From the NCBI GenBank assembly GCA_008632985.1, contig QPGO01000057.1, positions 372,001 through 403,213 of the forward strand: DNA of 31,213 nucleotides. Direction: 5' to 3'. A program made the translations under genes and the position numbers. Below, piece after piece: positions 3,791 to 27,079 of this stretch (positions are counted from its first letter, which is position 1; every line of letters starts with the position of its first letter). This DNA is from Psammoneis japonica (taxonomy: Eukaryota). The notes below the pieces were generated by a model. That model was not told where the DNA came from. It saw only the letters and a list, made by a program, of their open reading frames with translations, and made no database searches.

Positions 3791-4122
3791 ATAATGAGCG
3801 ACGAGTTCCGTGGGGGGGGGGGGGGGGGGGCGGAGTCCTCGTTGGGCATGGTGAATGCTGCACCTCTGCTTTGATAGAAACTTCTGTTTCCACTAGTATT
3901 ATCATTCTCGACGCGTTCATCCTCTTCGTTTTGTATTCAGTGACAGCATGGATTCGTGGTACCGTAGTGATCATCATCATCATTATAGAAGACGGCATAG
4001 CCCACAACCAAACCAAGCAGCACGCTCATCAAAACCGCAACGGAGAAGGTCATGGATACCAACAATAAAATGTAACAGAAAAGGCCTGAAGTGTGTGCAA
4101 TAGTGCAAAGAATATTCTTCAT
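3790..4122 (-). pseudogene. Ctr-family copper transporter C-terminal fragment
   Basis: YILLLVSMTFSVAVLMSVLLGLVVGYAVF resembles Ctr TM2/TM3 (MxxxM degenerate to LxxxM; GxxxG intact), followed by TTNPCCH. The TGA at 3937-3939 is in frame with a continuing acidic tail (IQNEEDERVEND...MPNEDSAPPPP). No intact N-terminal half is visible. Confidence 0.55.
3812..3830 (+). repeat. G19 homopolymer
   Basis: Read directly; encodes poly-Pro on the minus strand. Confidence 0.9.
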
Positions 4123-4630
4123 GGTGGAGAGCTACAACTACTTTGTTTTGGCTGAAACTTTAAGTGGGAATGGCTCGAAGGAGACCTATGGCGATTGCAG
4201 TTCGGAGAAAACGCACGCGGCAGAGGTCAAGAGAGACACTTGGAACCGCCAGAGAAACTGAATATCATCTGCCTTTGCACTCACGCCACCACGTTTTGTT
4301 TACAACAAGCTTTCCCCTCATCCCTGAATCGTCCCTCTCTTCCTATGCACCTTCTCATCACGCTTGAGCCGAAAACAGTTTGTGGTACTACCGGTATGTC
4401 TGATGGTGGGACGAGGAGTCGATCGATCGAACGTCTCAGCAGAAACGTTTGGCTCGATTGCATCCGCAGCTGATCATCTTATTGTGCACATGGTTAAGAA
4501 AACATGATTATTTGTACAGGTGCCTGTAGCAACTATTTTGTGTCATATAATATCTCCTCGTTATACAAGAGGTCATGGTACTGTATTCCACACACTACCC
4601 ACTGTACGCCTAGCGTACGCTACATCATTA

Positions 4631-4800
4631 TTATTTCGACACAAACTCAATGTCAGGTCTCTTATTCTGCAACATGGCCAGGTTATCAGCTGATAGCACA
4701 TCACTTCTAAGCCAACGAAGAGTGGGCCGGCTTTGAACAAGATTGATAATGAACTCTTGAGGCAATGGTCCTTCAAAAGTATAATTATAAGGAACAGGAA
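4631..4800 (-). pseudogene. C-terminal fragment of an expanded diatom LRR/F-box-like protein family
   Basis: PLPQEFIINLVQSRPTLRWLRSDVLSADNLAMLQNKRPDIEFVSK* resembles the recalled C-terminus (PQ..LIKFVR..P.LRWFRSDL..EN..ML..ERP.IE) of a diatom family; the upstream frame is broken. Confidence 0.45.
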
Positions 4801-5135
4801 CAACCGCGGAGACGCGAACCGTCCAATTCAGATACAAATACCGATTCAATCGTCCAGATAAGCATTGTTTTATCATTGCCAGTTCACTGTAGTATGTCCT
4901 TTGTTGTCCACCCGAACCACGGAAGATCAATTGCTACTACAATGGTTCTCAGTTCTCACAGAAACTGCCGCGATAAAATCCTCGCAATAAACCGACCACG
5001 TATCCCAGCGCTGCACCAAAGCATAGGAAAGTTCTGTGACTGAATAGCAATGATCCATAATCGAAATAACACAGAGAGTCCAATCAGCACACATCCACTC
5101 GTGCGGCGTCGAACTAATTCTCGTTCCTCCTCCAA

Positions 5136-5255
5136 TTAAACTGCTGTAGCTAGTACCTGCATCTTGTCACTGTTTAGTCGGCGTGGATTTAGATTCAAGT
5201 TTTGTAATTCAGCATCATTTTCCAACAGACGCATACAGAGATCGTGGAGCCATGG
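5136..5255 (-). pseudogene. RNI-like leucine-rich-repeat N-terminal fragment
   Basis: Hand translation PWLHDLCMRLLENDAELQNLNLNPRRLNSDKMQVLATAV* resembles the L..ND..L..L.L start of RNI-like LRR proteins; short and stop-terminated. Confidence 0.3.
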
Positions 5256-5590
5256 ATGGGTGGAGCGGAATCTAACATGCGCGTTGGTATGAGTCTGTAG
5301 GACCAGAATAACACGCGTTTCCGCCTACAAAACAATCTCAAGTGCTTTCCACAAGCTAGTTTCTTTATTCATACAAAATACAATAGAGCTTGAGTTTAAT
5401 GCCTCTTCTGTTCTTCTCCTTGCCGGTGTTGCGAAAAATTGAAAATGATTAATGATCTTGGGCGTTCGCATGAGGCTCAGAACCTGGTGTTCACCGATGC
5501 TTCGCGCGATATATCACTCCCCATCGTTCGTGAAGCACTTGATACACGTTGGTACGCCTTGGTACGCTTGTCCACGGAACACTAAGTATG

Positions 5591-6558
5591 TATGGAAACC
5601 GTTCAGTCACTGGCCGGCCGACGCGGAATTTGTACGGGAATGACCGAAGCGTCAGCTGAGGTCATCGGAACCGGTCACGAAGCCGGCAGGCTGAGTACCG
5701 GTTCTCCCGTACAAATTCCACGGAGGCCGGAGCGGCCGAACCTGAGGGTGCGCTGAGGCGGAGGTCCCCGACGCCGAAGCGCACCCGAAGGTGAGGACGC
5801 GTCCACGTGACTGACCGGTTTCCATAGGAACCTATCAGTTAGAGGACTGACGCAACACAGAGACCAACAAAATACATTAATATGGATCTCTATTGAGTGA
5901 TCCTGGTGATGTATTTTTGTTGTGGGACCGCTGGAAGACGCCATGGTCGAAGGTGAGGCCTCTCGATCGCGGTGTCGTTTCGTGGGTTTGCTTTTTTATC
6001 TATATTATTAATACATATAGATGTATATTTATTTTAATTAGGCGGTTCCGTTTATATGTTTATTCATTTATATATGCTTTTTCACAGTCAGTATCGGTTT
6101 GTGGCATTCAAACACGATTGAACTCTGCGACGTCACATACCAGAGACCTACACAACATTGTCGTAGCCAGCATGTGCAGGAACCACCGTTGGGTCGAGAG
6201 CACTTTTTGAATTTCAATACCAGACAACATGTAGATTTCTACGAGCCAGAAATGACCCTCCAGTGCCATATCATGTGCATCGCTCACTCCGGGAACGCGA
6301 CGGCCGGTTCCCGGAACGCTGGTATATGCCTACGTGGCTCTACGTCGGGAATCGGCCGAATTTGTCAAAATCGCCTGCGCTGGTTCCGACGGTTGGAATG
6401 AGACAAAATTCAAATATTGGTTCCCAACCGTGTACCAAGTTCCCACGTAGCTTCTACACAACCGCCAAAATAGTCTCGGTCATAATGACTCGAGTTTCCA
6501 TACACAGTCTACACAGCGCTACGAAGAACAATGTCAGTCCGATAACTGATAGGTTCCT
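5591..6558 (+). other. Large branched fold-back element (structured ssDNA or RNA) with tandem G.A mismatches; function unknown
   Basis: Stems: 5591-5610/5807-5826 (19/20 bp), 5614-5639/5705-5730, hairpin ears 5640-5665 and 5668-5704, arm 5732-5800, and long-range stem 5826-5851/6533-6558. Eight internal mismatches are tandem GA/GA. Confidence refers to the pairing, not to a function. Confidence 0.85.
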
Positions 6559-6759
6559 GAAGTACACCCTGTCTACGCAGTGTCCCGTTTGTCCACAGGT
6601 GAAAAAAAAAAGATTCAAAGCAAAACGATGGAGAGTACAGTGTGGCTCGAGGACCGAAACAGACCTCGCCGACAGAGAGCTCACGACTGTTGCTTGCTTG
6701 TTGGCTGGCTGGTGCTGTTTCTGGCTAGAGCTACGGTGCTCTACCCTACAACTGTGAAG

Positions 6760-7500
6760 TGTGAGTTGAAAGGAATGCATTAGACTGGCATTTTGTTGGA
6801 AGCCTCACAATGGATCATTGCTCGATCAAACGGCCAAGGTCAGAGGCGGCCACGACAATGATGAAGTCAAATTGGTTGACAAGCATTTGTGGCAGCAGGA
6901 AATGCAAACAATGACAGGGTCAAACTGGCACTGCTGGACAGAAAAAAAGAGTTCAAGCTCATGACTGTGCTGTTTGTCACAAAGGGCTCGGTTCAATTCG
7001 GAGTTTCTTTTGCAAGGCGAGTCTCTTTTCCTCTTGTGTTGTCACATGTGCAACCAAAAAGGAGGGGTGCACCATTGTCATGCACCAAACAGTGCTTCGG
7101 CAGCTGAGTTGTGCAGTGTCTGGTGCAACAATTTCTTTTAGAAGGAGAGTTTTTCCTTGTTGTCAGATGTGTGTGACAAAAGGAGAGAAGCACCATGATT
7201 GTCATGCAAACAGTGGATCAGCCATCTGAGTTGTGTGGTGTCTGATGCAACAAAAGGCAAAAGAGACAGAAGCAGCCAAAACTCAAAAAAACATGCAGCA
7301 GGCACCTGAGTTAAAGCTCTTCCAAAAACAAGAGGCTGCACCACAAAACAAAACATTGCAAATCTGTGACCATTGGAAAAATTGGCTGCTGTCAAGCTGA
7401 GTGATGACTTTGGCAATGTCAGATTTGTGACCAAAAATGAGTTGGTGGCAAAACACAATTGTTCAGAATTTAAATGGTGGTGACCACATCAGTTGATTTT
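6760..7500. mobile_element. TpA-depleted, partly CpG-depleted degenerate repeat block 1
   Basis: Only a few TpA, in TTAG/TTAA contexts (6780, 7138, 7311, 7471); TG/CA-rich; flanks have normal composition. Confidence 0.6.
6825..7033 (+). mobile_element. Possible CryptonF-type tyrosine recombinase relic
   Basis: Reads DQTAKVRGGHDNDEVKLVDKHLWQQ...RARFNSEFLLQGESLFL. Reverting CAC/CAT to TAC/TAT and CAA to CGA gives GGYDNDEVKLVDKYLW...LRGESLF, resembling the recalled GY...YFW...LRGES catalytic-Arg region of Crypton/Ndc10-like YRs. Short and degenerate. Confidence 0.35.
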
Positions 7501-7592
7501 TGAAAAACCGTCACACCTGTGTGGAGTGTGCATCGCAGGTGTAAAAATTTCATTTCTTGTTCTTGTTGATCTTGGCGGGCGGGCGGGCGGCG

Positions 7593-7918
7593 CGGCACCA
7601 GTGCTCACATCAGGAGCACAGGCGCTTGTACAGCATCGCATTGTGTCAAAACACGGCGCAGCGCGCAGTTGGGCGCAGCACCAGTGCTCACATCAGGAGC
7701 ACAGGCCATCATGCATTCAGATTTATAATGTCCTGAAGATTGCAAAAGACAGTGCCATTACCCAACCTTTTCAGAATTGATTAAAAATATAAAAGCCATC
7801 ATAGATTCAAGAATTATATTTGCTTGTATACGTATTTTGTGTCAAAACAGACACCGCGCAGTTGGGAGCGCAGCACCAGTGCTCACATTAGGAGCACAGG
7901 CGCTTGCACAGCATCGCA
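7593..7918 (+). repeat. Three copies of a ~30-80 bp unit containing a GTGCTC-N7-GAGCAC hairpin
   Basis: GCACCAGTGCTCACAT(C/T)AGGAGCACAGG at ~7595, ~7678 and ~7873; copies also share TTGTGTCAAAACA and GCGCTTG(T/C)ACAGCATCGCA. Confidence 0.85.
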
Positions 7919-7989
7919 GTGAGATCTTTGGCAAACCATACACTGGTTTTAGAGGTAGTTGAGCCTTTGTGTAAACAAGTCTGCCCACT

Positions 7990-8800
7990 CTGCACCCTGC
8001 ACCAGCATTCCGAAAACAACGAGACTACACCCTTTTGGAGACACCGCAAGTTTCGCATCATCGCCGTCATACTCACCGCCGTCGTGGCGATTGTGATTGT
8101 AGTTGTCGTCATTTTAATGGGTAATACTAATCCCAAAGCTCACTTTGTTCCCGTTGATCCACCCGGCAAGGAAGAAGCGGGTCGTTGGGATGCCACGTTG
8201 GGATTGCGTTTGCGTGTCGTAAATGCGTGCAGTGACGGCTAATGGACGGCTCTGTTTGATGCTTCCCTCAGTGATTGGAACTCAAGTCCATCGCTGCAAT
8301 TGACACTGATGCGTTCAACACAGGATCTGGGTTGTCAACCGGAAATGAAATGACTCAAGGTTTGCAGTGGCAATTATGGCAATACCGGTTGGCTGTTAAG
8401 ACGAGAAGTCATTGTGTGGAGCACGGCGCGACTCAATGAAGATCAATACATTAATACTGTGCTGAGTCTTTGTTTTGTTGTTTGTGTATTGTTGCTATTG
8501 GGGTGGTATATTTTGGTGCTTGTTTGGCGAAGTGTTGGCATTCTTTCGTCTCTCAAAACGCGCACCTCTCCCATCTACTCTTACTCGATAATCCATCCAT
8601 TTGTAATGTTGTTTGTAGGTGCCACGAACTTTGTCACGGATTTGGTTTGCCGCATCATTCCGACGAAAATCATTTCAACATTAACCGAGGGGATTGCATG
8701 GATTACACAACCCGGCCCCGTTCCAACAAGCTGCCGGGACTGCACAATTTTCATCCCCCCGACGAGCCACTTGTGTTTGGTAGTTCCGCCACTGACGTGA
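7990..8800 (+). pseudogene. Type II membrane zinc metallopeptidase (metzincin-like HExxHxxGxxH), disrupted
   Basis: N-terminal TM (IIAVILTAVVAIVIVVVVILM), then LRLRVVNA, LKVCSGNYGNTGW, ARLNE and CHELCHGFGLPH...GDCMDYT; in-frame stops at ~8240 and ~8351 and frame changes. Confidence 0.7.
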
Positions 8801-9059
8801 GTGGTGCTACTTCTGGAAACTTACGTCCCAATCGAAATGGCAGTACTCGACGAATGGAAAACAATGCGTTCTATGCGGACAATTCACCCTTATGGACGAA
8901 TCCGTGAACAATAGCACCACCAGCACTATTCTACAAGAATCATCCGAAGAAGAAGAGTCGGAAGAAGAATCAAGTGACGAGGAGCCTGTTCCAATGGATA
9001 TCCAAGAAACGGCACTTGAACAAGTAGGTTGGCAAATCTGTTTGACTGCCCCCGACTTG

Positions 9060-9720: not shown

Positions 9721-12700
9721 GATTTTCACTGCACATCATCCTGTAGCATTCTGTGCCTTCCCTCCAAACTGCGCGTTTACTTTGAACAGCGCATTTCGTG
9801 GGGAGGCATTGCTCTTTCCTTACTGTACGTGCGACAGGCTTCTGTATAATGCTTTGTGGACGCCATACTTCTCGTCCTACTTTATTTATTTGAATGTGCT
9901 TACACTCGGCGGCGTCATGACCGCCTCCCTTATGTGTGTGTGTGGGGGGGGGGGTTCGAAACCGTTGGTGTTTTGCTTGCGGCATTTCGAGTCGCCAGAA
10001 ATCTGAAATGGACGTGAAAACTACAAGAAATACGAGGGAACAGCACAATATAAAAGGTATGTTCAACGCTGTCTAAATGCGTACAGCTTTCAAGTTGTGC
10101 GCCGGTCACTCATTTTCTTGCTAATCTAATAATGAGCTGCCACTTGTTTTGCAGGACCAGTTGCTGCTGTTAGCCGCGACTGCTGGAGAAGGCTGATTGC
10201 GCTAGGAACCTGGCTTCTTTCTTCCGTCTTGCTGCGAGTCGTCTGCGCCGTGGATCAGAAGAGTGCATTATTTGAGATTCCCACTGCGTAGCAGAAACCG
10301 CCATGCTTCGTTTTAGGGAAAGACTCTAGAGGCAACCAAGCAACTCTAGAAATCTAGTGTACTCGGTGGAATCAGAGCAAGAAGATCAAACATCAAGATC
10401 CCGATAGTGCTGCTGCTCAGCTACAGACGACAAGCTTTACAAGTTTCTACGCAGGTCAGAAGTTGCCACCAGCATCTCACACGCAACATCAGAATCCCCA
10501 TGTTACATATTCCCATCGATTGAGATCTTGATTCAGTGACAAAGTTGTCTCTTTCTAACGTCAAGTATCACACTTTGACTGACTGTTCTGATGTTGGCTC
10601 ATTTTCACCTTCGCTGTACCGGCGTGAGACAGCCGGTGCTTTCTCCGCTTTGTCAAGTGTCGCACTCATGGAAAGTCAAGAGGCAAGCCGATTTGACATA
10701 AGGCTGTTGAAAACGGTGTTTGAATGCTGTGGGTGTTCGACAATCTTCGTGTGACCCTTGGTGGAGAGCTCCACGTTTAAGTTGGCTCATGTGAGATGGT
10801 ACACATCATTGAGTTCGGAACTAAGCAAACCGTTCGCACCAGTATGATATTGCGCAAACAGAGAACACACGACGCTAGACAAACACCATTGCTGTGTCGT
10901 GATTGTTGTCTCAAGGGTCGATAGAACTAGTTCAATTTTTTTTTCAGGCGTTGTCATGCTGACGGCCAAAAAATCTCTCCAACTTAGCCCTACCTGTACT
11001 CTCTACCGTAGAGGACTTAGGCCCTGTGCCAGATAACTTGCTTCAAATCTAGAGTAGTACGCGGCCCTAATACCAGCGGGATAGCTATAGCACCAGTAGT
11101 ACTGGCTTTATAGCCCGAAGCTGTTTCCTGTTTGGGTTGGAGGCGGAAACTTGCTGGTGATGAATTTGATTGCTCGACTGACAGAGGACAGAAAAGAGCA
11201 TGCCGGGCGACAAACTGAATCAGGGTATAGATGCGCAACCGTCCGGTGCAATTCACACCAACGTGGCAGTGCACTTGACCAAACCGCCACTAGAGATCGT
11301 CGTCTTCGTATTCCAAACTTTATCGCTGTCCATCGTGTCATGAAACACTGACTCCTTTTTGCTTTGTCCCCCCTTCCCATTGCTGCTGTTGGCCATCATA
11401 ATGAGCCCCTTGTGTCTCTGGCCTCCTTCAACTCTTCCTTTGTTTTGCCACACTTGCACACACTTTTTGCAACTGTTCTCCAAAACCAGCAGGTTGGGTG
11501 CCTCATCGTTCTTGCAGCTGCCAACTTGTCCAAGCAACATCTTGATTTGAGCCAATGCTTCCACATCATCTTTCCCACTGCTGTTGGCAGGAACAAGAGT
11601 GGGGTGAAAGAGTTTTGGGATGGGATGTTGTCCCTCCCTCTGGCACTTCCTCCAGAGATTGCATCTTGGCATTGTTTTCTGCTTGTGTGTTTGTCTTCTC
11701 ATGATCTGTGTGCTCTGCACACTTGCAAAACACCAAGCAGCATGTGCCGGCAGCCTTCCAGCACCCCAATTGTTGCACACTCCATTTTGATGTGCAGTGC
11801 TTGTGGAAAGATTGTTTTTCAGTTCCCCATTGGCATTGTTTTTGTTTGCCATTGCACCTTGCCCTTTGACATTTCACAAATTTTTGCCCTCTTTTTTCTT
11901 GGGGCACGTTGAGTTTGGACAGTGCTGTCTTTGCAACCCTGCCACAAAGCACAAAGGCCTTGTCATTCAGAAACTTGCGCTGTCTGAACAGGACATTCTT
12001 GCAGCAATTCTGCAACACAATCTTGTCCCTGTTGTTTGTTTTGTCACTGTGTTGATTCTTTCTTGCTGGTGTGTCGCGCGCCCATTTTTGCGTGAAAATG
12101 AAAATTGCATGATGTGTTCATTGCAACAACTGCATGCACCACAAATGTTGTTTTCATGACCAAAGCTCAAACAAACAAGAAAAAGCAAAACAAAAACAGC
12201 CATGGCTTTCGTGGTGCATGACGGTCTCCTTTTTTCAATCTCACGGACAACTGGGGGGCATTGTGAGGACCTCAGCATTGGACACAGTCAACACACAAAC
12301 TGAGCATGATGAAAAAACAACTGCTGCAGTCTGCGACACACTTTTGCATTTAACTGCGTGGCAATGGCAGCTTTCAGAAGCAACTGCCAGCCTCATTTTG
12401 CTCCAGATTTAATGCCAAGAACAGCTTTTTTTTTTCTCTTGTCATGCAAATCATTTCCCAGCTGTGTGGGCTGGCACAAGACTTTCAGAGTGATTGACAT
12501 CAAGAAAGCAGCAGGAAAGAGTCCAGAATTGGTGCCGCTGCGGTGCTGGTGTTCTTCTTGATTTGTCTGTTGCACAATTTGTTGCTCAACAAAGATGTTG
12601 GTGAGGCTGTTGAATTGCAAGTGTCAAAATGTGTGCACAAAAAATGCCAGGCAATGATGCCAGATGACCTGGTTTGCACAAAAGAGTGTCCGGTGTCCGC

Positions 12701-15700
12701 ACATGTTGCACACAAGCACATCAATGTGAGCACACACTGCTCAAGGAAGTGATGAGCTCTTGTCTTGATCAGCAACAATGAGCCCAGATAATCTTCAGAA
12801 ACAACAACGTGGGTGCATGCACAAGACCTTTCTGCATGTGTCCATGTCTGAACATTTGAGTGTCAACACTTTTTTGCCAGAACAAATCTGAAAACATGGC
12901 CCATGACCAAATGAGAGCATGTTGGAGTTTGGCACTCACAACTGCCAATGTCAAAGGCAAGCTTTTTCCATGACTCAACAAGTCCACAGAAATGATTGAG
13001 AACCCTGTGAAAAGCCACAAAGAAGGAGCGAGAATGGCAAAAAGCCAAGCCTGCAACAGACCTGGTTGAGCAATGACAAGATGCAAGATGCTGTCTGTGA
13101 GAATGAAGTGCAGGCACAAAGCTCATGCCACAACTCCAGCAGCAAGTCTCTCACCTCTGTCAGGTGACAAGCCCAGCGGTGCTCTTCTTCCCGCTGTTCC
13201 ATGAAAAAGAAGAGCTGCAAAGATGTCTGCATGATTGCCAAATGGTGCTGCACTCCCCTTGTCATCAGATGGTGACTTCACAGAGGACAAGCATGCCAAG
13301 TTGAATGTGCAATCAAATCCCAATCAAGCAGCTGTCCAAGAGGTGCAACATTCCTGAATGCATTGCTGCTTGCCATCTGTGCAACCCATGATGTGACAAA
13401 TTGCCATGCAGCCTCTGTTGAGAAACACCACACAAGATGACACATCAGCATCAATTTTGGCCCTGCAGTGCCTGACACCCCACATGCCAACAACAATGCA
13501 ACCCACCAGTGTGGCAGCCAGGCATGTTGGGTGCCAGCCACATGTGCCACATCTTGGAGAGGGCCAACCAAATGGGTTCAGGAAATGGCATTGACAGGCG
13601 CGCAACTGCCAGGATTGCACCTGTGATTTGCAATGTTTTGTTCCAGACCAGCTTGTGCTGCAGTTCAAAAAAGCCCAGATGAAGCTTCCCCAGCTCTGTC
13701 ACATTTTGCCAAATCACAAGACAAGTCTGGCATAAATCCAACAGAGGTGCATCTTGTGTGAGCAACATCACAACAAAACAGAGAGGTGGGCATGAGAGGA
13801 AGAGTCAAATGCCGCCACCACACATTGCCAAATCCTTGACTTCCACTGTTTCTCAGCCCCGGCCATTGCACCTGTCACGTGGCACATGACAATTGCATCC
13901 GATGCACCTCAAATTCAAATCAAGCCAAAGGTGTGTGAATGAAAAAAGGCCAGATCTGTCCCAACTGTTGGAAGAGGAATCAAAGCTGGGGTCTTGACTC
14001 TCCCAGCAACTCCATTTGTTTGGCTCTCAACCTTCTTAAATGACATGAAGCAAAACAAAGATTTCCAACTTTTTGTTCTTGTCAATGAAACAAGCTTTGG
14101 CTGGGGACACATTGGTCTTTGTGCCTCTGATTTGCATCCCTTCATTCATTCTTTCACAATCCAAATGGCAATCTTGACTTTCCTGGTGACTCCTTGGTGG
14201 GCTTGGCTTTCAAGAAGTCAAAACAGAGATTTCCAACTTGGTCCCATGAATGGTCCTTGCAACCCATTGTTTGTTCTCTGTCAGCATTGCAGCTCTGGAC
14301 TCCTGGCTTGGATCAGGGCTGGCACTCAGTTGGATCAGGGCTGCTTGACACATTGTGCTGCTCACACCACTCACAACTGCACAACAGCGCATGACTCTTG
14401 AAACACATGGTGAAGGAAATTCAGACAATGCATTTGATGCATTTGAGTGGTCCCACAAGACATTTGACAAAGCAGCTGAGCTCCTCCTGGAAGAGCAGAG
14501 GGGCAACACATTTTTCATTTCAAATTTGGCAGTTGTGTTGCATCAATCGCTGCTTTCAGCAATGTGGAAAGAAACAATCATCAAGAGGTGCGCCACTGAC
14601 AGCTCATCCAATCTCATCTTTTGACCCCAAAAGGCCATGGAGATGTGGTGGGTTGGGTTGCCAAGAGCCTTTGCATGGAGTTGAAGATCCCTGGCATCAT
14701 TTTCCCAAAGCAACTCATCAGCTGCAGCAGCATTGGTGTGTGAGCCAACATGCTTTGAAGCCTCTGTCACTTTTTCAACATTGACATGAAATGTGGTGAC
14801 AAAAGTTTCTTTGCACTTGCTCATTGTGGCACAGTGATGCATGTGCAATTGGAAAAAAGCTTGGCTCATGCTTTGAACCAGTGATGGCTTGGCACTCACA
14901 TGAGGTGGGGGGACACTGCACATGACATTTCTGGATTTTGCATGTTGTCAGAAGCACGTGAACTCCCCATTTTAAGTTTGAGTTGCCATTTTGGAAAAGA
15001 GCAAGATTGTGGAGGTCCAGCGGCCAGAACAAATCTTTGAAGTGGGTTTGCATTGATGGACTTTAATCTTTTCAACTGGACTCACATTTTTTGTGCTTGG
15101 CTTCATCCCCTCCCAAACACTGAAGCTCCTGCTGCAGATGCCTGCACATCTGCTCTTACATTTGCACTTGATTTGTGTCAATTTTTTTTGTTTCTTTGAC
15201 CACCTTGGCAACAGTTTGTAATTTCGCCTTTTTGTTGCAATGGGTGGCTTTCCTCATGCCATCCACTGTGACCATCAGAGCCTCTGCTGCACTGCAGGTT
15301 TTCTTGCAGAGCCACAGAATGCCTGGCTTCTGTGGCCACATTTGCAAAGAGCCTTGGCAGCTGTCACCCGATGTTGTGCATCTGCTCACAGCCTTTTTTG
15401 GGTCATTGCAAGCACATGCCAGTGCCAAGATTTGGACCAAGGGAACAAACAAAGCTTTCACAGCTGCGCAAAATGAGACACAGCTGAGCACACTGTCTGG
15501 TGCACAAAGCATTTGAGGATCAGGGCAAGCTTTGCAGCAGGCTTGTTGGCATGGACTTTCCTGTTGTCTCCAACAGCCAAACAGCCCTTCAAGCAACCCA
15601 GGCCCTGGTGATGGTGCAACTTTGGAGGTGTGGCTGGACAATGCCAAATGTGCTGCAATGGTCAGGGGCCATCAAACAAATGTCTGGCCTTGTTGAACTG

Positions 15701-16740
15701 CTCAGACTTGTCTGCAGTGCCAGCATGCCATTCTGGCCCTCCAGAGCTGACCCATGCTTTTTTCTGGTGTGGATGCAGAGCACACTTTCTGCAAGCTCAA
15801 GCAGACCCTTCCATGCTGTTGTCTTGACACTCAAGGATCATCTGGCACAAGCAGCCATCAAAAAAGGCAGGTCTCCAAGAGCTTCTCTCTCATGCACACA
15901 CCCACTGCTGTCTCCAAAATGACCCACAAGGTTGGATCATCACCACGCACTTGAGGCATTGCTGCTGTGTGTCAACACCATGGAGGGGGTTGCACTTTCA
16001 CCTGGCCCTGGACACACTGCTGGGAGCTGGGCTTTTGTGTTTTTTGGTGCTTGGGGTGCTGCTGGAAGCAGGGCTTGCAGTGTGATGCATCACTTGGAGC
16101 TGGCCACTGTGCTTTCTTGGTGACAAAAGACAGTCAGAACCAGGCTTGATCTCCAGGCAGGCTGCAGCCAGGTGTCATTCTTGGAGCTGTGCTGGAGCCT
16201 TGCAGGTGCTGATGGGAGGAGCTGGGCTTGCACTTGGTTCATCACTTCTTGGCACATTGCTGGCAGCAGGACTCATGCTTGGCACATCTTGCTGCTCCTC
16301 AGTGGTGCTGCTGGGATGAAGCCACAGGTGGAAGGCAGCAAACATCAAATTGCCAGAGGCTCACTCACTGCTGTGCTCAATGCAGTGCACCTGCACATCA
16401 AAGTTGAAAGTCTGTCTGGTTGATCATTGATCACGTGGCACAGCAGGGCTGCCACATCCCACTGTTCCTGACAGCTGCTGTTGGCTCTAGCTAGACTCTA
16501 GAGAGACACTGCTTGGAGTGCATGGCTGAATTTTGTTTGCTGCTTTCTTGGTTGTGCACAACACATTCCCAAGGTGAAGTGATGCACCAGTCATTCACCC
16601 ACACTCACACAAGTGACCGCTCATTGTCCATGACTGTCATCTCTGCAAGCAGGCCAGACTTTACACACCATGAAAGTGGCAAACACTGTTTTTTGTTCTG
16701 CCACTCTGTTCTCTCACTGCTCTGCCAGCACCGCACAAAT

Positions 16741-16960
16741 TTTAGCTTGCACTGTCCTCTTGGCAAAAGCCAGGATGCTGTTGCACGTCTCTGCCTGGCA
16801 CTCCCAGAGAATGTTAAAAAAAACAAACAAATGTTGTGCACTTCCATGCTGTTTTCTCAAAACTCCAGCCCTGCACAGCTTCTCAGCTTGCACTGTCCTC
16901 TTGGCAAAATGCCATGATGCAATCATGTGTCTCAACTGGGCACTCCCATGGGAGAACATT
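16741..16960 (+). repeat. Diverged direct duplication (~75 bp, copies at ~16741 and ~16882)
   Basis: AGCTTGCACTGTCCTCTTGGCAAAA is shared; downstream differences are mostly TG/CA/CG swaps. Confidence 0.8.
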
Positions 16961-17938
16961 TTGACCTTTTGCTGGTTGTTGCAGTTGGCAATCTGGTGCT
17001 CCAGTTTCACAATCAGTGTGTTCTCTGTGCTGTTTGTCTTCTGCTCTGGATGGAACCAAGGTTTGTTGCTGAGCCAGATTGCACAGCTCATCCTGAAAGG
17101 ACCTGTGATTGCAGAACCTGGCATTGAGCATTGAACACTTGCATGGGCAGCCATGCATCTTTGGATGCCACGCCCATTGCCAAATTTAGCTGCCACTGGT
17201 TGCCACAAGGATCATCAAATGGAGGTGCATTTGAAAAGAATTCAATGGCCTGTTTTGATTCAAGCACATTGAACCCCCAATCACCCCATGGACTGGAACA
17301 CAAGAAATTGAAGTTGCGCCACAACTTCTCTTGAGCAATGTGTTCGTTCATGAGCTTCCATTCAGATGGCAATGTTGAGACAAGCTTTCTGACATTTTGT
17401 GGATTTTGACTTGCAATCAAAACACCAACAGGTGACAATCCACCCTGAGCCATTGCCACGACGCAACATCCAGAGTTGGTTTGTTGCAGCAATGACTTGC
17501 AGCCTTGAACATGTCCCAAAGGAAAAGACAGGCTCTTGGTGTCTGGATCCCATGAGTTGGCACACCAGACTCTGCCCCACACCCAGTCAGATCAGGAGCG
17601 CACATTTCATGTCCAGGCTCTTGCAACACAAGCTTGTCCCAAAATGGAGTGTGCCCCACATGCCAAAACCTTCTTTCATCATCAACTGGTCTTGAGTGGC
17701 AGTTCTCCATGAAAGAGGAGGTGGTGCTTGTGGGGCCCACCAACGTTGGAGTTGATGTTCGCTGCTGCAAAATTCCTTGCAACATGTTTTAGCATGGGGG
17801 CGAGGCGCTTGCCGTGCCGGTCGCCAGTTGAACATGATCAAAAATGTGCTCAACAGCAGCATCTCTTTGAGTTGTTTGGGATGCCTTTCCAAAAGCAAGC
17901 CCTGCCAGAGAGAGCAATGTGATGAAAAACACGAGCAA

Positions 17939-18024
17939 GCGGACCGGCTTCATTGCTGTTGTTTTTGAACTTGTGGTGGTTGCGGACCGGCTTCGTTGCC
18001 ATTGTTTTTGAACTTGTGGTGGTT
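17939..18024 (+). repeat. 43-bp tandem duplication
   Basis: GCGGACCGGCTTCATTGCTGTTGTTTTTGAACTTGTGGTGGTT followed by GCGGACCGGCTTCGTTGCCATTGTTTTTGAACTTGTGGTGGTT. Confidence 0.9.
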
Positions 18025-18330
18025 GCATCTCAAGTTCCAGCAGTGCACATTCTGTGTGCGATTCCACATGGCTCTTGAGGGGAACCCGGAATGTTGTTGT
18101 CAAAGAAGAAGTCTCTCTCTCGAACTCTGTGACATTTTCTCTGCAAATAATGTAGCAACATGCGCCGCAACTCCCAACTTTTGAGGCGAGGCGCATCAGG
18201 AAGAATCCACCATTGTCGTGTTGTGAAGCCGCGCTTGATCGCGCTAGGCCAAAAAACTCGCGGCGCGCGGCCGACGGGCCGACGGCAATGGCATCGCGCA
18301 AACAAAAAAAAAATCTCAAAAACAGTCAAG

Positions 18331-18932
18331 ATGTCGTCGGGGCAGTCGATGTTGCAATCACGTCGATCTCTCTACGTGGGAGGTCTTGAGGATACCGTCA
18401 CTGTGTCGACACTGCGTGCTGCAATGATTCCGTTTGGTCCTATCAAGTCGATTGAAATCGTACGTACGTGTGAATGAGCATGTTTTGACAGTTTTTGAGA
18501 TACCTCCGCTCAAGTCCTCACATTCGTTTTTCAACTCCTCTTCGTTTAGCCAATGGATTACACAAAAGGAAGTCATAAAGGATTTGGATTCGTTGAGTAT
18601 GAGGAACCAGAGGATGCTTCTGAAGCAATCTTCAATATGGACGGAGCTGAGCTAATGGGCAAAACACTCAGCGTCAGTCTAGCCCAAGCCAACCAAATCA
18701 AGCTGGGCAGCAACAAGGCTGTCTGGAGTACCGACGAATGTAAGTACTAAGAAGGATGCTCATATCTACTGTCGATTTGAGAGTCATTCTCATCATGCGT
18801 GTCGCTATCACTCCATCACATATCGTAGGGTTCCAACAACAAGCTGGTTTGCAAGGCAACGAACAAGAAGCGGCACAAAAAGCCGCAGCAGATGATGCAT
18901 CCGCTCTTCAGAAGGACACTCCTTTGCCGTAA
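18331..18932 (+). CDS. RRM protein similar to the N-terminal RRM of cyclophilin E/Cyp33 (no PPIase domain); exons 18331-18459, 18550-18739, 18829-18932
   Basis: RNP2 LYVGGL, RNP1 KGFGFVEY, AIFNMDGAELMGKTL and KAVWSTDEW. Two GT-AG introns (GTACGT..TAG; GTAAGT..TAG) join the exons in frame. Confidence 0.9.
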
Positions 18933-19498
18933 GTCTCGTACAATTGCACATAGGGGTGTATAAATGAAGAATATCATTAGCACTGATGGAGAGCTGTGAA
19001 ATGGTTCTGCCTAGCAACGCCGCTGGCAGGTTGTTCCAATGCCCATAACCGACCATACGCTACATGCGATAGTGTAGGTAAAGCAATCGACCAAGGCGTC
19101 CCATTCACGGTGGCTTGAGTTATTGCTCTATTGTATCGTAGTAAGCCTTTCTCCGTCTGGCGCGATTCCTTTTCAGACGTTCGTCCCCCCCCCCCCCCTC
19201 CGAGATATATCAAGGCAAAGAAACACGAGCTGGACGCAAAGCTGTTACTTGTATCGAGCCTTGATATCTAATCGTCCTTGTTGCATCCAGGCTCGATGCA
19301 TGTGACAGCTTTACGTGCTGCTCGTGCTTCCTGGCCTTGAGATAGCCGTATAGCATCTTCAACATGAACCAGCTCCATGCAAATGTGCACCTTCCCCTCG
19401 TTGAATTTCTCCCTTCGTCTGTTCAAATAGAAATCAAAATCTGAAAAAGGGTGCGTTGTTGTTATAACTCAGGAAGATGGAATCAAACCGTCAGCTTT

Positions 19499-21160
19499 CT
19501 ATCCTCGCACTTGCACATTAAAATTCGCAGTTTTGTGATCAGCGTGCGCATTTTTCTTCTGCTTCTTGACTATTCTCCATACTACTTGCAAATCATGAGC
19601 TACCTGACTTGCTGAGGGCCTCTCTTTTGGGTCCAACGTGAGACACTTGTGCATCGCGTTCTTCAATGCAACGTGAATAGGGTCGTTGCTAGCTTCCAAC
19701 TCGTTCGACAGCCTTGGTATATCGCCTTTTAATATCAGCGCTTCGGCTTGAGATGTAGTAATATCATTGTACTTTTCCTTGTTCATGAGCAACTTGTAGA
19801 AAATGTTTCCTGATCATAGCAGCAAAAATAAGAATGCAGTTAGCATTGCATTCCAGAATAAGTTGAAACGACAGGCAACAGAGAGCAAAACCAGGGGCGT
19901 ACCCAAGGAATACACGTCTATCTTTTCATTGACGTAATTCGTTTCCGCCATGTGCTCTTCTGGGGATCGGTTCTGCAACTCGACCAAATCAGAAACATAG
20001 AGTTAGAGGAAGTAAGAAGGACATTTGTATATATCGTTGTCAAAGGTGTCAATAACTCGCACGCACCTTGTCGTGAGGATGAAACATGGTCCATGTGCAA
20101 GCGTCTTTGTTTCGTTCATCCAAGTAAAGCAAACCGGCCGTATTGAAGTCATTGAGTAGAAAGTTGCCATTCAAGTAAATGAATTGCCTCGCGTCAATGT
20201 CGGTATGCACGGCCGGCGAGAAGGGTCCCCCACCCAGCGTATGCAAATCCGCCAGACCCTTGGATATAAACGCCGCCGTCCGGAGTCGCTCCATCTGACT
20301 CAAGTTTTTATAATGATCAAGCAACGTTCCGTCGTGTGCAAAATCATACACGGCCGCCATACCGCAATACCCGTAAATGTTTGCTACCGCAGGAGAAAAT
20401 GTCAGTCGTTCTGATAATATCGAATCCGTTTGATGATCTTGAAGAAATCGTTCTGTGTAGTTGAGATTGTATCGCAATGTTTTCAATGCCCAACTTGATG
20501 AAGTAGAAGAGTCGTCATGTTGTTGTTTGTACTCCCACACATCACGGGCGTATCCATGATTGACCATTTGCGCCTCATTCTGCCGGGATTTCGACAACAA
20601 ATCCATTTCGTGAACCATGTTGCACGTCGGAAAGAACGTTTCTTGCCAATCGTACATTGGACGACATGTGTTCAACGACTCGGCAGTGTTGTTGACGAAT
20701 CTCCATGCTGCTGCTGTTGCCCTAATGTCACGTTCTTTGATCCGAAACCAACCGAGATCGATTGGAAGTACCGATCCGTCCTTTGCGTTGAGTTCTAGAG
20801 CGAGAGGTTTCGGATCAAACGCTGCTATGGGTACTTGCTCTTGATTGCTTGAATTCAAGTAACGTTGCGACGATCGTTCAATCTGTACAATGAGGAAAAC
20901 TGTCAGCGGCAGCAGCAGTAGAGAACGAACCAGCCCGTAGACCTATTGCTTCTAATCAAGAAGAACATCGAGCAACGAAAACATGACGTCCGAGCCTTGT
21001 GCTGCTTGTGACATTCAACGTCGAGTGTGTCATCCTCTTCTATCGGCGGTTCAGGATGACGAAGCACGCGAACCCTCCTCAGTCTTGGAGAGGAACTTGC
21101 TGAATGTTGTCGATTGTGTCTCTGGTCTCCAAGTTGGATGAGTCCATCATCAGGAGGCAT
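19499..21160 (-). CDS. PKDCC/VLK-like membrane-anchored protein kinase; exons 21160-20067, 19972-19903, 19809-19499; apparent 1-nt frameshift near 20942
   Basis: GYARDVW, ALKTLR, HTDIDARQF, LNDFN, RSPEE, EKIDVYSLG and CLTLDPKERPSA in order. GT-AG introns restore the frame. A hydrophobic anchor (LVRSLLLLPLTVFLIV) lies upstream in the kinase frame. Confidence 0.85.
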
Positions 21161-21343
21161 TATGTATGTTCATATAACAAGGGGCGTGGCTCGTCGCCAA
21201 CCGGCAAAGAGCTATGATAGAGAAGAAGTGTTGCATTGCCTCCGCGAGTCGCCATGCTTGACGCTTGACGCCATCCCTCTCACAAAAAAGGCGCGAATGG
21301 AATGATCGGAATTGTGTATATATTAAACATTGTATACCTCTAC

Positions 21344-21429
21344 AACTTTTTGCGCCAAAAATCTTTTGGAAAGCATAAAAAGTTATACTTTGTTGAAGAT
21401 ATATATAAACTTTTGCGCCAAAAATCTTT
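21344..21429. promoter_or_regulatory. Duplicated TTTTGCGCCAAAA motif (E2F-like TTTGGCGC on the minus strand) in a divergent intergenic region
   Basis: AACTTTT(T)GCGCCAAAAATCTTT at 21344-21366 and 21408-21429, in an AT-rich stretch between two divergent start codons. Confidence 0.4.
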
Positions 21430-21658
21430 CCGTTGGTGGCGGAACGGTCGATATCAGTCAGTCGTGGTGACTTCGTATCAGCGATCTTGCGACTTCAACT
21501 TTTTGCGTCATCGCATCCCTTGTTGGTCAATGGTCAACCGCTTCTCCACATCCTACTGTGTGTCCGGTGGCCGGTGGCGGTACATCGTCACGATTCCTCC
21601 AACATCATTGCTCTGTTGTTGCATTTGTCATTGCTATTTTACAATAAGTCATCATAGG

Positions 21659-23027
21659 ATGATTTCTAGTCTTTTCGCTTGGTGGCCAGCGGTATTCTTA
21701 TTGCTCTGTTCGAATCCAATCCCTGCAATCGCATCGTCGTGTTTTATTGCAAATCGATTGCCGGGAAATCTGTACAAGAGACCACCACTGCTGCAACTAT
21801 CGCGAGGACGTACAACAACGCGACTCCAAGTAGCATCCTCCAGAAATGTCTTTGTGATTTCCTTTGACGGCAGCGTCGCTGATACATCCACGTGGAGAAC
21901 ACAACAGGGCGTAGTAGCCGCGTTGGATACGTGGCCAACGTTGCGAGAAATGACTAGTGACAATGACGACGACCAGCAATGGCTTTACAACAAACTCGGA
22001 GCCTTGTCTCACGTGCTTACAAGTCGACCGGGATCTAGCTTGGGATGCGAGTACGCCTTGTTGGCTCGACTGTTTCTCGAAGAGCAACAACTAGACGAGG
22101 GAGGATCCGTGGGACGAACGGGAAAGTATGCTTCCAAGTTCCATCCTTCTACTTCGACACAGCAGCAGACACAACGACGCACCAACAGGCAAGGAAGTAG
22201 ACCTCTTACCGTGGGAGAAGTCGCGGCCAATTGGCATGACGGGGGATTTCTCCATGAGTCGTTACTCGCAAAGTACAATGTCGAAGGAAGCAACCCTCTG
22301 CAGCATCTTCAAGTTGCTATTGAACGACAAGAATCTAACAAGGTGAGTATGGTGTGGAGCTTAGGAGTTAGGGTGTTACTGTGAAGCTAGTTTTCGTCTC
22401 ATGAAATATGATTGGTTTGTACAATTGTTCTTGCCACCTGAATTCATGCAAAAGGATTTCAAGCTGCAGACGGTTGAGCCACTCGTTGCGGATTCATTAC
22501 GGGGTTGCACGGGTGACATTTTTGTTACAGTAGGGCATGCATCGGATGTAGCCATGGCGACCAAATGCCTTGAAAACGTAGGTATTCAAGCGAGAGTAGT
22601 GGATTCATCTTTGGATCAAGCATTCGACACGACAAGGCTGGACACACCAGGATCCGTTACGGTTGTTCCGCATTGTACCGACCGCACCAGTGAGCTACAA
22701 ACAATCAAGCGATTTGCAGAGCGACTGAACCATGCCAGTAGCGAAAACGAAGAAACAAACCTATTTGTTGTCAACTCGTCTTGGCAGTCTCTTCGAAAAT
22801 TGAAGCTACTGTTTGGAGACAATATGCCCCGCAAACGGCGCGACGAAATCCCGACGAGCTTTGCAAAAATACAAGAGCTTGATCAAGTCAACCTCTCCCT
22901 CAACTTGCCGTACTGGGCCTACAATACAAATCAAATTGCACACAATCAAGCAGAAATGGATCCATGGACCAACGTTTTGCAAATGGGTGCTTTTGTCGAC
23001 TTGCTTTTGCAAAAGATTGCGTCTTAG
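21659..23027 (+). CDS. Probable plastid-targeted HAD-like protein; one intron from 22343 (acceptor at 22454 or 22469)
   Basis: Signal peptide (MISSLFAWWPAVFLLLC...ASSCF), an Arg/Ser/Thr-rich transit-like stretch and a HAD motif-I-like FVISFDGSVADT. The AAG/GTGAGT donor is in phase with the 22401-23027 ORF. Confidence 0.75.
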
Positions 23028-23923
23028 CAAGTGGTTGTTGCGGCACAAGGTTTGGTGCTTGGCAGACCGCTTAGCGTGAGTGTTGTGTATCACGCACTCT
23101 GAAGAGTATTGAAGCGGGGCCGTTGTGCACTGCAAGGATTACCACACTATAGCTGGAGTTGAATGCCATTACTGGTTGGCTAGAAAAGAATGCGCGGGGC
23201 AAACTAGGCTACTGTGAAAACCAGAGCTGACGTGACTGTCGCATGTGGACGTATCAAAAATCGAACGGAAAGAAATGAGCAGAGCAAACATATGCAACGA
23301 CATCGCAAGCGCTACGACCTCCCTCGTAGCATTGACGTACGTACGGAATGAATAACACACCAATAAAGACTGCTATGCTGTACTTTTAGAGTCTTTCTAA
23401 TCTTTTGGAATAGTTTCAAAGCATTCTTTGAAACACGCCAATATCAAAAGTTGATAGAAATCGGTCGCGTAGGATAGCATTGCCTCAAGAGCGCCATCAG
23501 AAGATGGAGCTCAAGCTTTTTCCTAGTTTCGGAGTGGAAATCCATCCAAAAAAAAAGAAAAAGGGGGGACGTACTACGGAGACGACAAGTAAACTTGCGA
23601 GTCAACCGCGTGCTAAATCAACACTCCCTACGAGTGAAGACTTACCGTACCACGTCACTGGTACGACGGAACCCCAAACCCCGCGTTCCGTCAACGGTAT
23701 GATCTGCTTGGCGAGCTTTTGCTGCCTCGCAGACGAACGCTGCTGTCTGTTTCAACAGCCGTGACCTGACAGGTCAAGCGAACAGGCAACTTCCTACGGT
23801 CAAAGACACAGGAGTAACATGGACTCCAGGCCGGAGACACGCATTCGATTTGCCCCGACCTCCGGACTTAACTGGCAACACCTACGCCGCCGATTGAGAC
23901 AACACGCCATCAAGCAAAATGAT

Positions 23924-24200
23924 TTGCGGAATACCAAACAAGAGCGAGCAATCTATTCCAGAGGAAGGGGGAGCCATCCTCGGCGATCGCGGCATTCGTT
24001 GCTTGGCAAACAACAAACACATCGTGCGAGACGACGAGTTGAAAAAAGAGAGACAACACTTCGTGCAAGCACAATGAGTTGTGGAACACCAAACAAGAGC
24101 TAGCTCTCTATTATCCGCAAGAAGGGCGAGCCATCCTGGGCGATCGCGGCAATCGTTGCTTGGCGAACAACAACACATCGTGCGAGACGACGAGTTGTGA
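23924..24200 (+). repeat. Tandem duplication, period ~155 bp
   Basis: TTGCGGAATACCAAACAAGAGC...GAGCCATCCT.GGCGATCGCGGCA.TCGTTGCTTGGC...CACATCGTGCGAGACGACGAGTTG at 23924 and 24079. Confidence 0.85.
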
Positions 24201-27079
24201 GCGAAAAACGAGCGCGAAAGAAAAAGCTGTGGAGAGATTTTGGTTTGTGTCGTGACCGTTGCAAATTTTCTCAATCACTATCATTTTTGTGTATCCAAGT
24301 AGAACAAGTACGATGATGTCGTATGTAGAACATTCGTTAGAATTTGGTACTTTCCAAACTATTACTAATTCTTACGTACGCTCTACGGTAACGGTCCAAA
24401 ACCTGCCGACGACGAGCTCCGCGGAATTTCGAAATTCTCCAGTGTCTTGCTGCCTGGCAAGGGTTGCTGGTGCAAGTGCTGTGCTGTGCCAAGTCTTGAA
24501 CAAACTGTTGGCACGCAAAGAGAGCCAGCTGCGCCAGCAGCAGAAGGAGTGCACAATTTTGCCAATGTGCTAGCTGAAAGCAGGACCATGGAAAACAATG
24601 TAAAACTTTCAGGAACTCAGTCATCCAATCCTTTTGTGTGAGACATGCTTTTCATTGTTGCTCCAGAGAGGCATGATTTGAGGGCCTGCTCCTGCCATGT
24701 TCATGGGAAGCCTGTGAAATTCTTGCTCCCAATGAATGCTCCCCATTCTCTTTTGTCCATGTTTCAACAACAGGCCTGACTTCTGAGAAGCAACACTTCC
24801 TGCGTGACTGCAATGCAAACCCAGAGTGGCGTGTGGTCCATCACTTCTCTTTCATCAATGTTGCCTCTCTGTTTTGGCAACTTGATGTCTGAAATGGCTG
24901 CAGCTTGCAGCAACCCTGAATTCTCAAGCTTGTGAAGCCACCAGAGCACTCAGCACCTGCTTGATCCCTGTGGCCACTCCTGGCACCACAACACATCATC
25001 GCTGGCCTGCTGCATTTTGACTTGGAAGCAACAGCACACTTCATCTTGCTGCTGTCCACACTCAAGCAGTCAAAGTCCCCACCACACCATGCACCACTCC
25101 AAGTGCAAATGCACTGAGAATCGACCACACATCAGAGGCCGCAACACAGTGGTGTTCACTTCCTTTGTCTTGTTTGCATCATTCAATGGTGTGTTGGCAT
25201 CTCTTTTGTTTTTGCACTTTGCATGCAAAGGTTGCAGTCATGTTTCAATTTGTTGTTGCCTTTTTGTGTGTGTTGTTGTCACCTTTTGTTTTGATTTAAT
25301 TTTGTCAATGCATCCCAATGTGTCTTGCATTTGAATTTGGCACATTTTCTTTTGATGACTTTGGTGCATGTGTTTTGAAACGTCATCTTTGACAGTTGTT
25401 TTCAACAGCTCCACCCCGTTCATGCACCACCACAGTGGCTGGCATTTCTTCTATGCCCAAGTTGTCCCAATGAGTGCTTGGCTCATCATTTTCACCTGCA
25501 CTCACCAGAATTTCAGTCCATGGCTCTCTGCCCGGTTTTTGGTGCATTTTCTACATGCGCAACATTCCACCCATTTTTCACGACAGCACATCCTCTCCAC
25601 AAAATGCATTTGACAAGAGCGTGCACTGTTGTGATTCTCATGTGCATTCTACGTGAATCAGCAACTGACTGTTGGCCATGGCTGTCAATGATGCTTGGCC
25701 ATTTTTTGCAGCTTTTGCAATTGTTGCAAGCACATTGCCACTCCAGTTGTCTGTGGCCACTTTGGCAAGGTGGCTTTCTTGCTTGGCAAGGAAGGCACTG
25801 GCTCTCAAGGTGATCCACTTGTGGTGGCTATGCACTGCACACAAACTGGGGCTGATTCTTCCTCCAGCTCAAGCCATGTGAGCACTCCTCATTTCCCTGA
25901 AGCACCCACACATCTCCTTGGTGTGCTGATGACTCAGAAGCAGCAGCAGGAAAATTTTCAAGCAATTCAGAAATTTTTTCTCACCCTGTGCAACATCAGA
26001 CCCAACCACAGCAGTTGCCATTCTGTTGACAACTCCAAGAACACTCCAGAGAGTTGTTCTTCCAGAGTGCATTCTGGGGCAGAAAAACAGACACATGGTG
26101 GCTTGCACCATGCTTGAAGAACAAGCACAAATGAAAGTGGAACAAGTGGAACAAATCACAGAAAGCACAAACCATGAGATCAAATTTTACACTGCAATTT
26201 TGGGATTTTCCAAAGGAGTTCTCAATGGCCTGAAGTGTTTGTGCTGCTCCTGCAGAGCAAAGGCCTTTCAGAGACCAATTCCCACGTGCACTTCACTGCA
26301 ACAGTGCAAAAGCGCCAGGCATCACTGACCACAAGGCATGACAATGACAAAGCCCCAGATTGTGATCATCACAGCAGTCAATGGGATGCACCGGCCTGTT
26401 GGGGTTGTTGCTTGTCAAAGAAAAATCAACAACAAGGGGGCACCTGTCATTTCTCTTTGAGCTGGGTGCCTTGATGGCTGCACCAGGTGCAGACGTGCCA
26501 ACAATGTTGGCAATGCTTGTTGGGGATTGAGCAATGCTGAAAGGAACTTTTCTGTTTCTGTCCAACCAGCCACCCACAATCATGCCAACAATGCTGACAA
26601 CTCATCTCCAACATGGCCACCCAGTCACTCCATGTCCTTCTTGCAGCACAAGTGGCCCAACAATGTGCTGTCGGCAAGTGCTCCTGAAGAGACTTTGTTG
26701 TCTCTTTTGGAGCAAGATTTGTGGAATGAAATGACAGCAAAGACTTGACAATTGAAGCGGACGGCCGCCACCCAAGCACATGTTTGATTGGCTGAAGGGC
26801 ACATGCAATGTCTGAAGGCACCTCTCAAGAAGGCACAATGATGTTGGGATGGTGGACCCAGACAAACCCTTTCAGTTTTCAGAAAAAGGCCAAACCACAG
26901 CATGCAGCACACACAATGCATGGAATTCTGCATCAACACTTTGCCATGTTGCAAATCAAAATCATGTGTTGAAAGCACAGTGAAAAATGTGAGGGGCAGA
27001 GAATGTCCACATGAGCTCTAGATTGTCAACATTGTGCCAAGAAAGAAATGACTGATGAGGACAATGAGCTCACATCAAA

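Follow-up and report, generated by a model that had tools for sequence, protein, structure and literature searches.

We analysed a 31,213-nt stretch of the Psammoneis japonica genome (contig QPGO01000057.1, positions 372,001 to 403,213 of the forward strand), here called the window, whose own numbering is used throughout. An original prediction, made from the letters alone, had placed a folded element in this stretch, ∼270 bp upstream of what it took, with low confidence, for the relic of a tyrosine recombinase (YR) gene. The fold proved to belong to a short insertion without genes, which is very probably a mobile element. Both ends of this element are complementary to one contiguous segment in its interior, the internal complementary region (ICR), and its folded plus strand carries tandem G.A mismatches at eight sites. 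The features are listed in Table 1.

Contigs of three sequencing runs were aligned to positions 4000-9000 at a likeness of at least 80%, and five of them represented empty versions of the insertion site. Four were contig joints that skipped the element (5576 to 6564, with 19 letters between; 5586 to 6557, with CA between; 5588 to 6572, with 16 letters; and 5588 to 6574, with 17 letters), and the fifth was a loose contig end at 6563. All five empty sites (contigs of run X1) lacked ∼970 bp and showed CT directly after AGTA or AGCA at the join, which places the insert at 5589-6556, between A5588 and C6557, without target-site duplication. The boundaries read AGTA/TGTATGG on the left and GGTTC/CTGAAG on the right (slashes mark the junctions), with no bases repeated between them. 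The last two bases of the right stem, 6557-6558 (CT), occur in the empty sites as well. The sequence AAGTA, present at 5584-5588 and again at 6560-6564, was considered as a 5-bp duplication and ruled out, since related empty sites already have both halves. The sequence hosting the insertion (5540-5588 and 6557 to ∼7500) is itself a CpG-depleted dispersed repeat with at least five related copies in the contigs.

The same contigs showed that the element family is multi-copy. Position 5916 was C in all 13 covering contigs and T in the window, and position 5882 was G in nine contigs. One 415-nt contig aligned to 5614-5864 with 22 differences and 9 gaps, and kept the junction between the fold and the adjoining 26-nt stem. 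Deletion variants lacked 5998-6510 (joints 5997 to 6511 and 6001 to 6512), and in a variant from run X1 positions 5635-5735 were exchanged for 10 letters (joint 5634 to 5736). Within the window, a search for a second copy with a 16-mer from the ICR centre gave only one match at up to 3 mismatches, and self-BLAST returned the element's own inverted repeats only. Scanning IMG/VR with this 16-mer yielded 10 loci that shared the seed or short extensions of it (longest, 35 nt at 86%), and a metagenome scan with a 20-mer yielded one 2.1-kb contig with long prokaryote-like open reading frames (ORFs) that had 24 consecutive bases of the ICR centre in common (contig L011, positions 17-40) and nothing more; both results were taken as chance. 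The ratio of observed to expected CpG was 1.23 in the element versus 0.49 in 6558-8000, 0.35 in 12000-20000, and 0.46 in 24000-31213 (surroundings overall, 0.35-0.95). CpG is thus kept in the structure, as had been predicted, and the element looks young or unmethylated.

Table 1. Features of the element and of the adjacent sequence in window coordinates
Feature	Position	Strand	Basis
Inserted element, 968 bp, gene-less, without target-site duplication	5589..6556	+	Empty sites in contigs
Left terminus: TG, then 20 nt complementary to 5807-5826	5589..5610	+	95% inverted repeat
Y-shaped fold, outer stem and two arms, 63% G+C	5591..5826	+	z = -12.65; inverted repeats
Arm 1: 26-bp stem with two small hairpins, three GA/GA loops	5614..5730	+	Repeat finder, folding
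Arm 2: hairpin of short stems with four GA/GA loops between them	5732..5800	+	Repeat finder, folding
ICR: 5807-5826 pairs with left end, 5826-5851 with right end, overlap at A5826	5807..5851	+	Repeat finder
A+T-rich block in body, missing from deletion variants	5993..6083		Sequence; joints 5997 to 6511 and 6001 to 6512
Exact inverted copy of the element's first 11 nt (unpaired TG included), weak inverted terminal repeat	6494..6504	-	Local alignment
Right terminus complementary to 5826-5851, one GA/GA loop	6533..6558	+	92% inverted repeat
Claimed YR relic, no homology, outside the element	6825..7033	+	Pfam searches
Two tandem copies of a ∼122-bp unit holding the GESLF string	6985..7253		6985-7110 and 7111-7253, ∼75% column identity

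Folded as single-stranded DNA, 5591-5826 reached an energy of -90.5 kcal/mol, compared to -44.8 ± 3.6 kcal/mol for 200 dinucleotide-preserving shuffles, none of which folded as well (z = -12.65). For the entire stretch 5585-6565, z was -12.83 (20 shuffles), and for the 681-nt body by itself only -4.6 on the plus and -4.4 on the minus strand. The outer stem comprises 20 bp, with 19 of the 20 positions of 5591-5610 complementary to 5807-5826 (95% by repeat finder). Inside it, the stem of arm 1 joins 5614-5639 to 5705-5730 (88% complementary), and that of arm 2 joins 5732-5760 to 5772-5800 (76%). A 26-nt inverted repeat, 5826-5851 with 6533-6558, adjoins the fold directly and is complementary at 24 of 26 positions (92%). 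The fold therefore exists and, as originally described, ends at 6558, where the 26-nt stem closes. Rfam gave no matches at gathering score over the whole window and, at E ≤ 10 in 5300-7000, only a chance-level small nucleolar RNA at 6927-6970; a tRNA scan found none.

The two outer stems share the ICR in such a way that, in the plus single strand, the 5' and 3' ends sit side by side on one 45-nt splint. Accordingly, the reverse complement of 5807-5851 matched the right end followed by the left end at 42 of 45 positions. The ICR centre, TTCC-ATA-GGAA, consists of two inverted half-sites, and the ICR as a whole lies 196 nt from one end of the element and 681 nt from the other. The left end recurs as an inverted copy near the right end, exact over 11 nt and extending with mismatches to ∼20 nt (6483-6504); its local alignment scored 22, which shuffled sequences also reach (mean, 17; maximum, 26). 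From left to right, the repeats are thus the left terminus, the left ICR, the right ICR, the inverted copy, and the right extension. GGAACC or GGTTCC was the most enriched hexamer of the element, with eight occurrences versus nine in the other 30 kb (∼26-fold).

Several common kinds of insertion were considered and rejected on these ends and boundaries. A DNA transposon with terminal inverted repeats, or a miniature inverted-repeat element, would need ends that mirror each other and a target-site duplication of fixed length; the element has neither. A solo long terminal repeat would likewise start with TG, but the element ends with TTC and not CA, and a 4- to 6-bp duplication is lacking. A group II intron was ruled out on end features. 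For a spliceosomal intron or introner, GTATGT at 5586 and AG at 6561-6562 could have served as splice sites; the insert itself runs from 5589 to 6556, and there is no gene around.

In the minimum-free-energy structure of the fold (5591-5826), all seven 2x2 internal loops consisted of 5'-GA opposite 5'-GA, in the context CGAA/TGAG in five cases and CGAC/GGAG in two. The element has only one more 2x2 loop, located in the 26-bp stem (5842-5843 opposite 6541-6542), and this was GA/GA as well, making it 8 of 8; on the minus strand the same eight sites read TC/TC. For comparison, GA/GA accounted for 8 of 159 such loops in 300 dinucleotide-preserving shuffles, with a maximum of one per sequence, and for 3 of 91 elsewhere in the window (folded in 240-nt pieces). 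Tandem pyrimidine-GA-purine tetranucleotides are described as forming stable sheared G:A pairs in DNA hairpins (PMC10085684), and a similar case of sheared G:A pairing is found in PMC11014236. Hairpins of CGAG blocks and of the centromeric GGA/GAAT repeats likewise contain tandem sheared G:A pairs that are flanked by Watson-Crick pairs and repeated along the stem; those described in PMC10085684 are simple tandem repeats, whereas the blocks of the element are spaced by stems of 2 to 9 bp within a mobile element. The pattern is not expected from random palindrome decay. Its presence as tandem G.A on the plus strand and TC/TC on the minus strand at 8 of 8 sites indicates selection on one single strand, the folded plus strand, which may be either DNA or RNA. 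Folding energies of the two strands were -93.4 versus -90.5 kcal/mol as DNA and differed more as RNA (-167.0 versus -151.7). We consider it reasonably probable that a single-stranded form of the element matters.

The splint could also have a trivial origin. Such a geometry arises from any two adjacent stem-loops, so that two foldback or palindromic repeats, or a hairpin-RNA locus, might adjoin here by chance, with the splint being simply their neighboring stem arms and no special mechanism involved. The variation of arm 1 and the body among copies would fit such a patchwork, as would the fact that one copy was read. In contrast, the empty sites miss both modules together, with boundaries no more than 2 nt from the outer bases of the two stems, and the junction is contiguous in another copy (5614-5864). 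In addition, GGAACC is enriched throughout the element, and GA/GA at every 2x2 loop is unexpected from palindrome decay. We therefore regard a chance arrangement as improbable.

The original prediction had read a degenerate YR motif on the plus strand from ∼6825 onward. The frame from 6770 translates as RGGHDNDEVKLVDKHLW, reaches a TGA stop at 6962-6964, and continues as LLQGESLF. The claimed motif strings are thus present only in altered form, and the Y and R reported earlier were assumed reversions of H and Q. When the 12 ORFs in 5675-7488 were searched against Pfam, no recombinase family was found at E ≤ 10; they gave sub-threshold unrelated matches to His_Phos_1 (E = 0.084), TSKS (E = 0.18), and GP3 (E = 2.2). 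Six read-through frames of 6560-7602, with stops written as X, matched no family at E ≤ 10. The part with the GESLF string belongs to a non-coding tandem repeat, and the whole region is situated past the end of the insertion (6556). The relic was therefore dismissed. A Pfam scan of the window covered 147 of its 174 stop-to-stop ORFs (75 aa or longer); the other 27 comprised 4 in the region of the CDC20 ORF (see below), 9 in 5678-7488 that were searched separately, and 14 that overlap the ORFs of 20160-23138. Four of the 147 had matches at E ≤ 0.01: the WD40 domain of CDC20, RRM_1 (18151-18474), and sub-threshold matches to Pkinase and COX4_pro.

These results bear on the idea of a Crypton with the fold as its cis-acting end and with a decayed YR gene at 6825-7033. 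Motif-like strings, although altered, do occur there, and CryptonS elements are known from stramenopiles, including the diatom Phaeodactylum tricornutum (PMC3212892); Crypton is also among the repeat classes of Cyclotella cryptica (PMC7466962). According to the family list in PMC3212892, most oomycete CryptonS families have TATGG as terminal direct repeats, and TATGG stands at the paired left end of our element (5591). Further common traits are the stramenopile host and the lack of both usual inverted terminal repeats and a classical duplication, and a circular intermediate has been proposed for CryptonS (PMC3212892). However, the supposed gene yielded no Pfam match in ORFs or read-through frames, it is in part a tandem repeat, and it is situated beyond the insertion in older, CpG-depleted sequence. 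Moreover, the single diatom (Phaeodactylum) CryptonS family listed in PMC3212892 has a different terminal motif, and Cryptons as described there have 4- to 6-bp direct repeats at both termini and no ICR. The element, in contrast, has no shared direct repeat at its boundaries (4 to 7 bp tested), no TATGG at the right boundary, and no YR gene. The version of the prediction with a Crypton relic is thus largely refuted and very unlikely to be correct. Its broader idea, a fold that acts in cis as the end of a YR element moving through single-stranded DNA, fared better: the fold spans the whole insertion, the ends pair with the ICR, and the G.A loops are confined to one strand. What did not stand was the link to the adjacent relic.

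The closest architectural likeness was found in DIRS1-like elements. Canonical members end in inverted terminal repeats (66-316 bp), and their two ICRs are placed immediately ahead of the right repeat and overlap at a 3-bp circular junction. Each ICR is complementary to one terminus, the left one to the start of the left repeat, and the elements integrate without target-site duplication (PMC3266345). Retrotransposition of DIRS-1 needs the ICR, and its intermediate is mostly linear single-stranded complementary DNA (cDNA) (PMC7192593). The element similarly has termini complementary to adjacent ICRs (here, contiguous segments matching at 19 of 20 and 24 of 26 positions), the same order of repeats, and no target-site duplication at any of the five empty sites. 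A single-stranded intermediate, as in the systems of PMC3266345 and PMC7192593, would be expected for it. Unlike DIRS1-like elements, it is devoid of gag, reverse transcriptase/RNase H, methyltransferase, and YR genes and measures 968 bp instead of ∼5-6 kb. It also differs in that its fold is Y-shaped and bears eight tandem G.A loops, features that are not part of the DIRS descriptions that we drew on in PMC3266345 and PMC7192593, and in that its host is diatom-like. Among brown algae, Ectocarpus is reported to have DIRS/Ngaro-like elements (PMC3145265). We would class the element as a DIRS-like (ICR-bearing) variant rather than as a proven member of DIRS.

A different parallel is offered by bacterial YR sites, such as attC of integrons and attP of CTX phage with XerCD. 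There, the duplex site depends on the folding of one specific strand, which is marked by mismatched or extrahelical bases, and the integrated CTX-type element has an internal arm complementary to its joined ends. For these bacterial sites the enzymes are known, whereas the fold of our element is read from sequence and its recombination site is putative. By analogy, the element could contain a recombination or joining site that exists only in one folded, G.A-marked single strand and would represent a diatom counterpart of attC/CTX-type recombination, a proposal that we consider rather unlikely at present. The user of such a site may be a DNA element, or else a DIRS-like element that pairs with the ICR instead of copying its ends from it.

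Strand-specific hairpins are also characteristic of rolling-circle or single-stranded DNA elements moved by an HUH (Rep-type) nuclease, in which they act as one-strand recognition structures, as in IS200/IS605, Helitrons, Replitrons, and parvovirus-like ends. Insertion without duplication, a strand-specific fold with mismatched loops, and a Y-shaped hairpin at one end would all be in line with such an element. On the other hand, no Rep ORF was detected among the window ORFs scanned, and, to our knowledge, no HUH group has been described in which both ends pair with a single contiguous stretch of the interior. Recognition of DNA hairpins by HUH enzymes is documented in PMC10288648. By the descriptions in that source, a Helitron is excluded: the element begins with TG and ends with TTC (TG...GGTTC on the plus, GAACC...CATACA on the minus strand) rather than having TC...CTRR ends, and it is inserted between A and C, not at A/T or T/T. 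Replitrons have short direct terminal repeats and, in the survey of PMC10288648, were not detected in diatoms. Mobilization by an HUH nuclease thus appears to be an improbable explanation, too.

The explanation that we tentatively prefer is a non-autonomous element which moves via a folded single-stranded intermediate and is probably mobilized by a YR. Accordingly worded as a model, 5589-6556 would be one copy of a short, gene-less mobile element that landed without target-site duplication in an older, CpG-depleted repeat. It would move as a single strand, either cDNA or single-stranded DNA, in which the ICR splints the 5' and 3' ends of the plus strand together while the 196 nt between fold into two arms. 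The splinted ends might then be joined, or serve as a single duplex recognition site in which inverted GGAA(A)CC half-sites surround a short centre, and a recombinase supplied in trans would integrate the single-stranded form. The likeliest candidate for this enzyme is a YR of the DIRS or Crypton kind, and we put forward that assignment with still more reserve than the model as a whole. If the minus strand were the sense strand, the ICR would lie nearer the 3' end, as in DIRS-1, and the antisense cDNA would be the plus strand with its G.A pairs.

A number of observations weigh against this explanation. Compared to DIRS1-like elements as described in PMC3266345, the inverted repeat is short (∼11-20 nt versus 66-316 bp), the ICR lies 196 and 681 nt from the ends instead of adjoining the right repeat, and at the junction 1-2 nt overlap instead of 3. 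In the DIRS model, the termini are templated from the ICR and a perfect match is expected, but 3 of 45 positions are mismatched here: the right stem contains a GA/GA loop, the left stem contains a T.C mismatch, and the outermost TG on the left is unpaired with the ICR. This imperfect match of the ends to the ICR fits pairing better than templating. Moreover, the GA/GA loop of the right stem has the appearance of a designed feature and not of a mutation, which argues for pairing over end-templating. As DNA, both strands fold with almost the same energy, and the asymmetry rests on loop identity and known G.A chemistry. By Pfam, YR, reverse transcriptase, Rep, and transposase were all absent from the 147 window ORFs scanned, and no autonomous partner is known for the element. 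A term search of the 2011 DIRS1 overview gave 0 occurrences of diatoms or stramenopiles in the text covered. Finally, the sequencing runs represent one sample, possibly the source of the window itself, and all of the structural detail comes from a single copy.

Outside the element, an uninterrupted ORF of 641 codons on the minus strand (140-2065) codes for a WD40 protein of the CDC20/Fizzy type (Pfam WD40_CDC20-Fz, E = 2e-121). The best matches with a species name came from the diatoms Cylindrotheca closterium (68%), Nitzschia inconspicua (66%), and a Bacillariaceae sp. (66%) and from the bolidophyte Triparma (68%), and none of the 120 matches listed exceeded 73% identity. This protein would place the host among the diatoms or close to them. 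Two weak matches may be exons of intron-bearing genes: RRM_1 at 18151-18474 on the plus strand (E = 2e-4, just above the cut-off) and, on the minus strand, a C-terminal Pkinase portion at 19502-19813 (E = 5e-4, below the cut-off). The long segments 12000-20000 and 24000-31213 were without Pfam-recognizable ORFs and, with CpG ratios of 0.35 and 0.46, look like old, probably methylated repeats. Several local repeats were also seen. A 54-nt unit with a small hairpin (GTGCTC..GAGCAC) occurs three times (7590-7643, 7673-7726, and 7868-7921; 70-93% identical), and a contig joint skips 7638-7871. A 43-nt unit is present twice in tandem at 17939-18026 (93% identical), and a ∼156-bp segment is tandemly duplicated at 23911-24197 (pieces 85-100% identical). 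Direct repeats ∼760 bp apart at 27089-27378 and 27852-28136 (pieces 73-89% identical) suggest a duplicated block of ∼760 bp, and a run of 19 G occupies 3812-3830.

How the ends of eukaryotic YR elements such as DIRS and Crypton are recognized and joined is still largely a matter of models. With the neighboring "recombinase relic" removed as a false lead, what is left at this locus is a compact, gene-less carrier of the end-to-ICR geometry together with a strand-specific G.A signature. If the family is active, eukaryotic integration based on a single strand could be studied on a small natural substrate, and the DIRS-like architecture would reach the diatoms.

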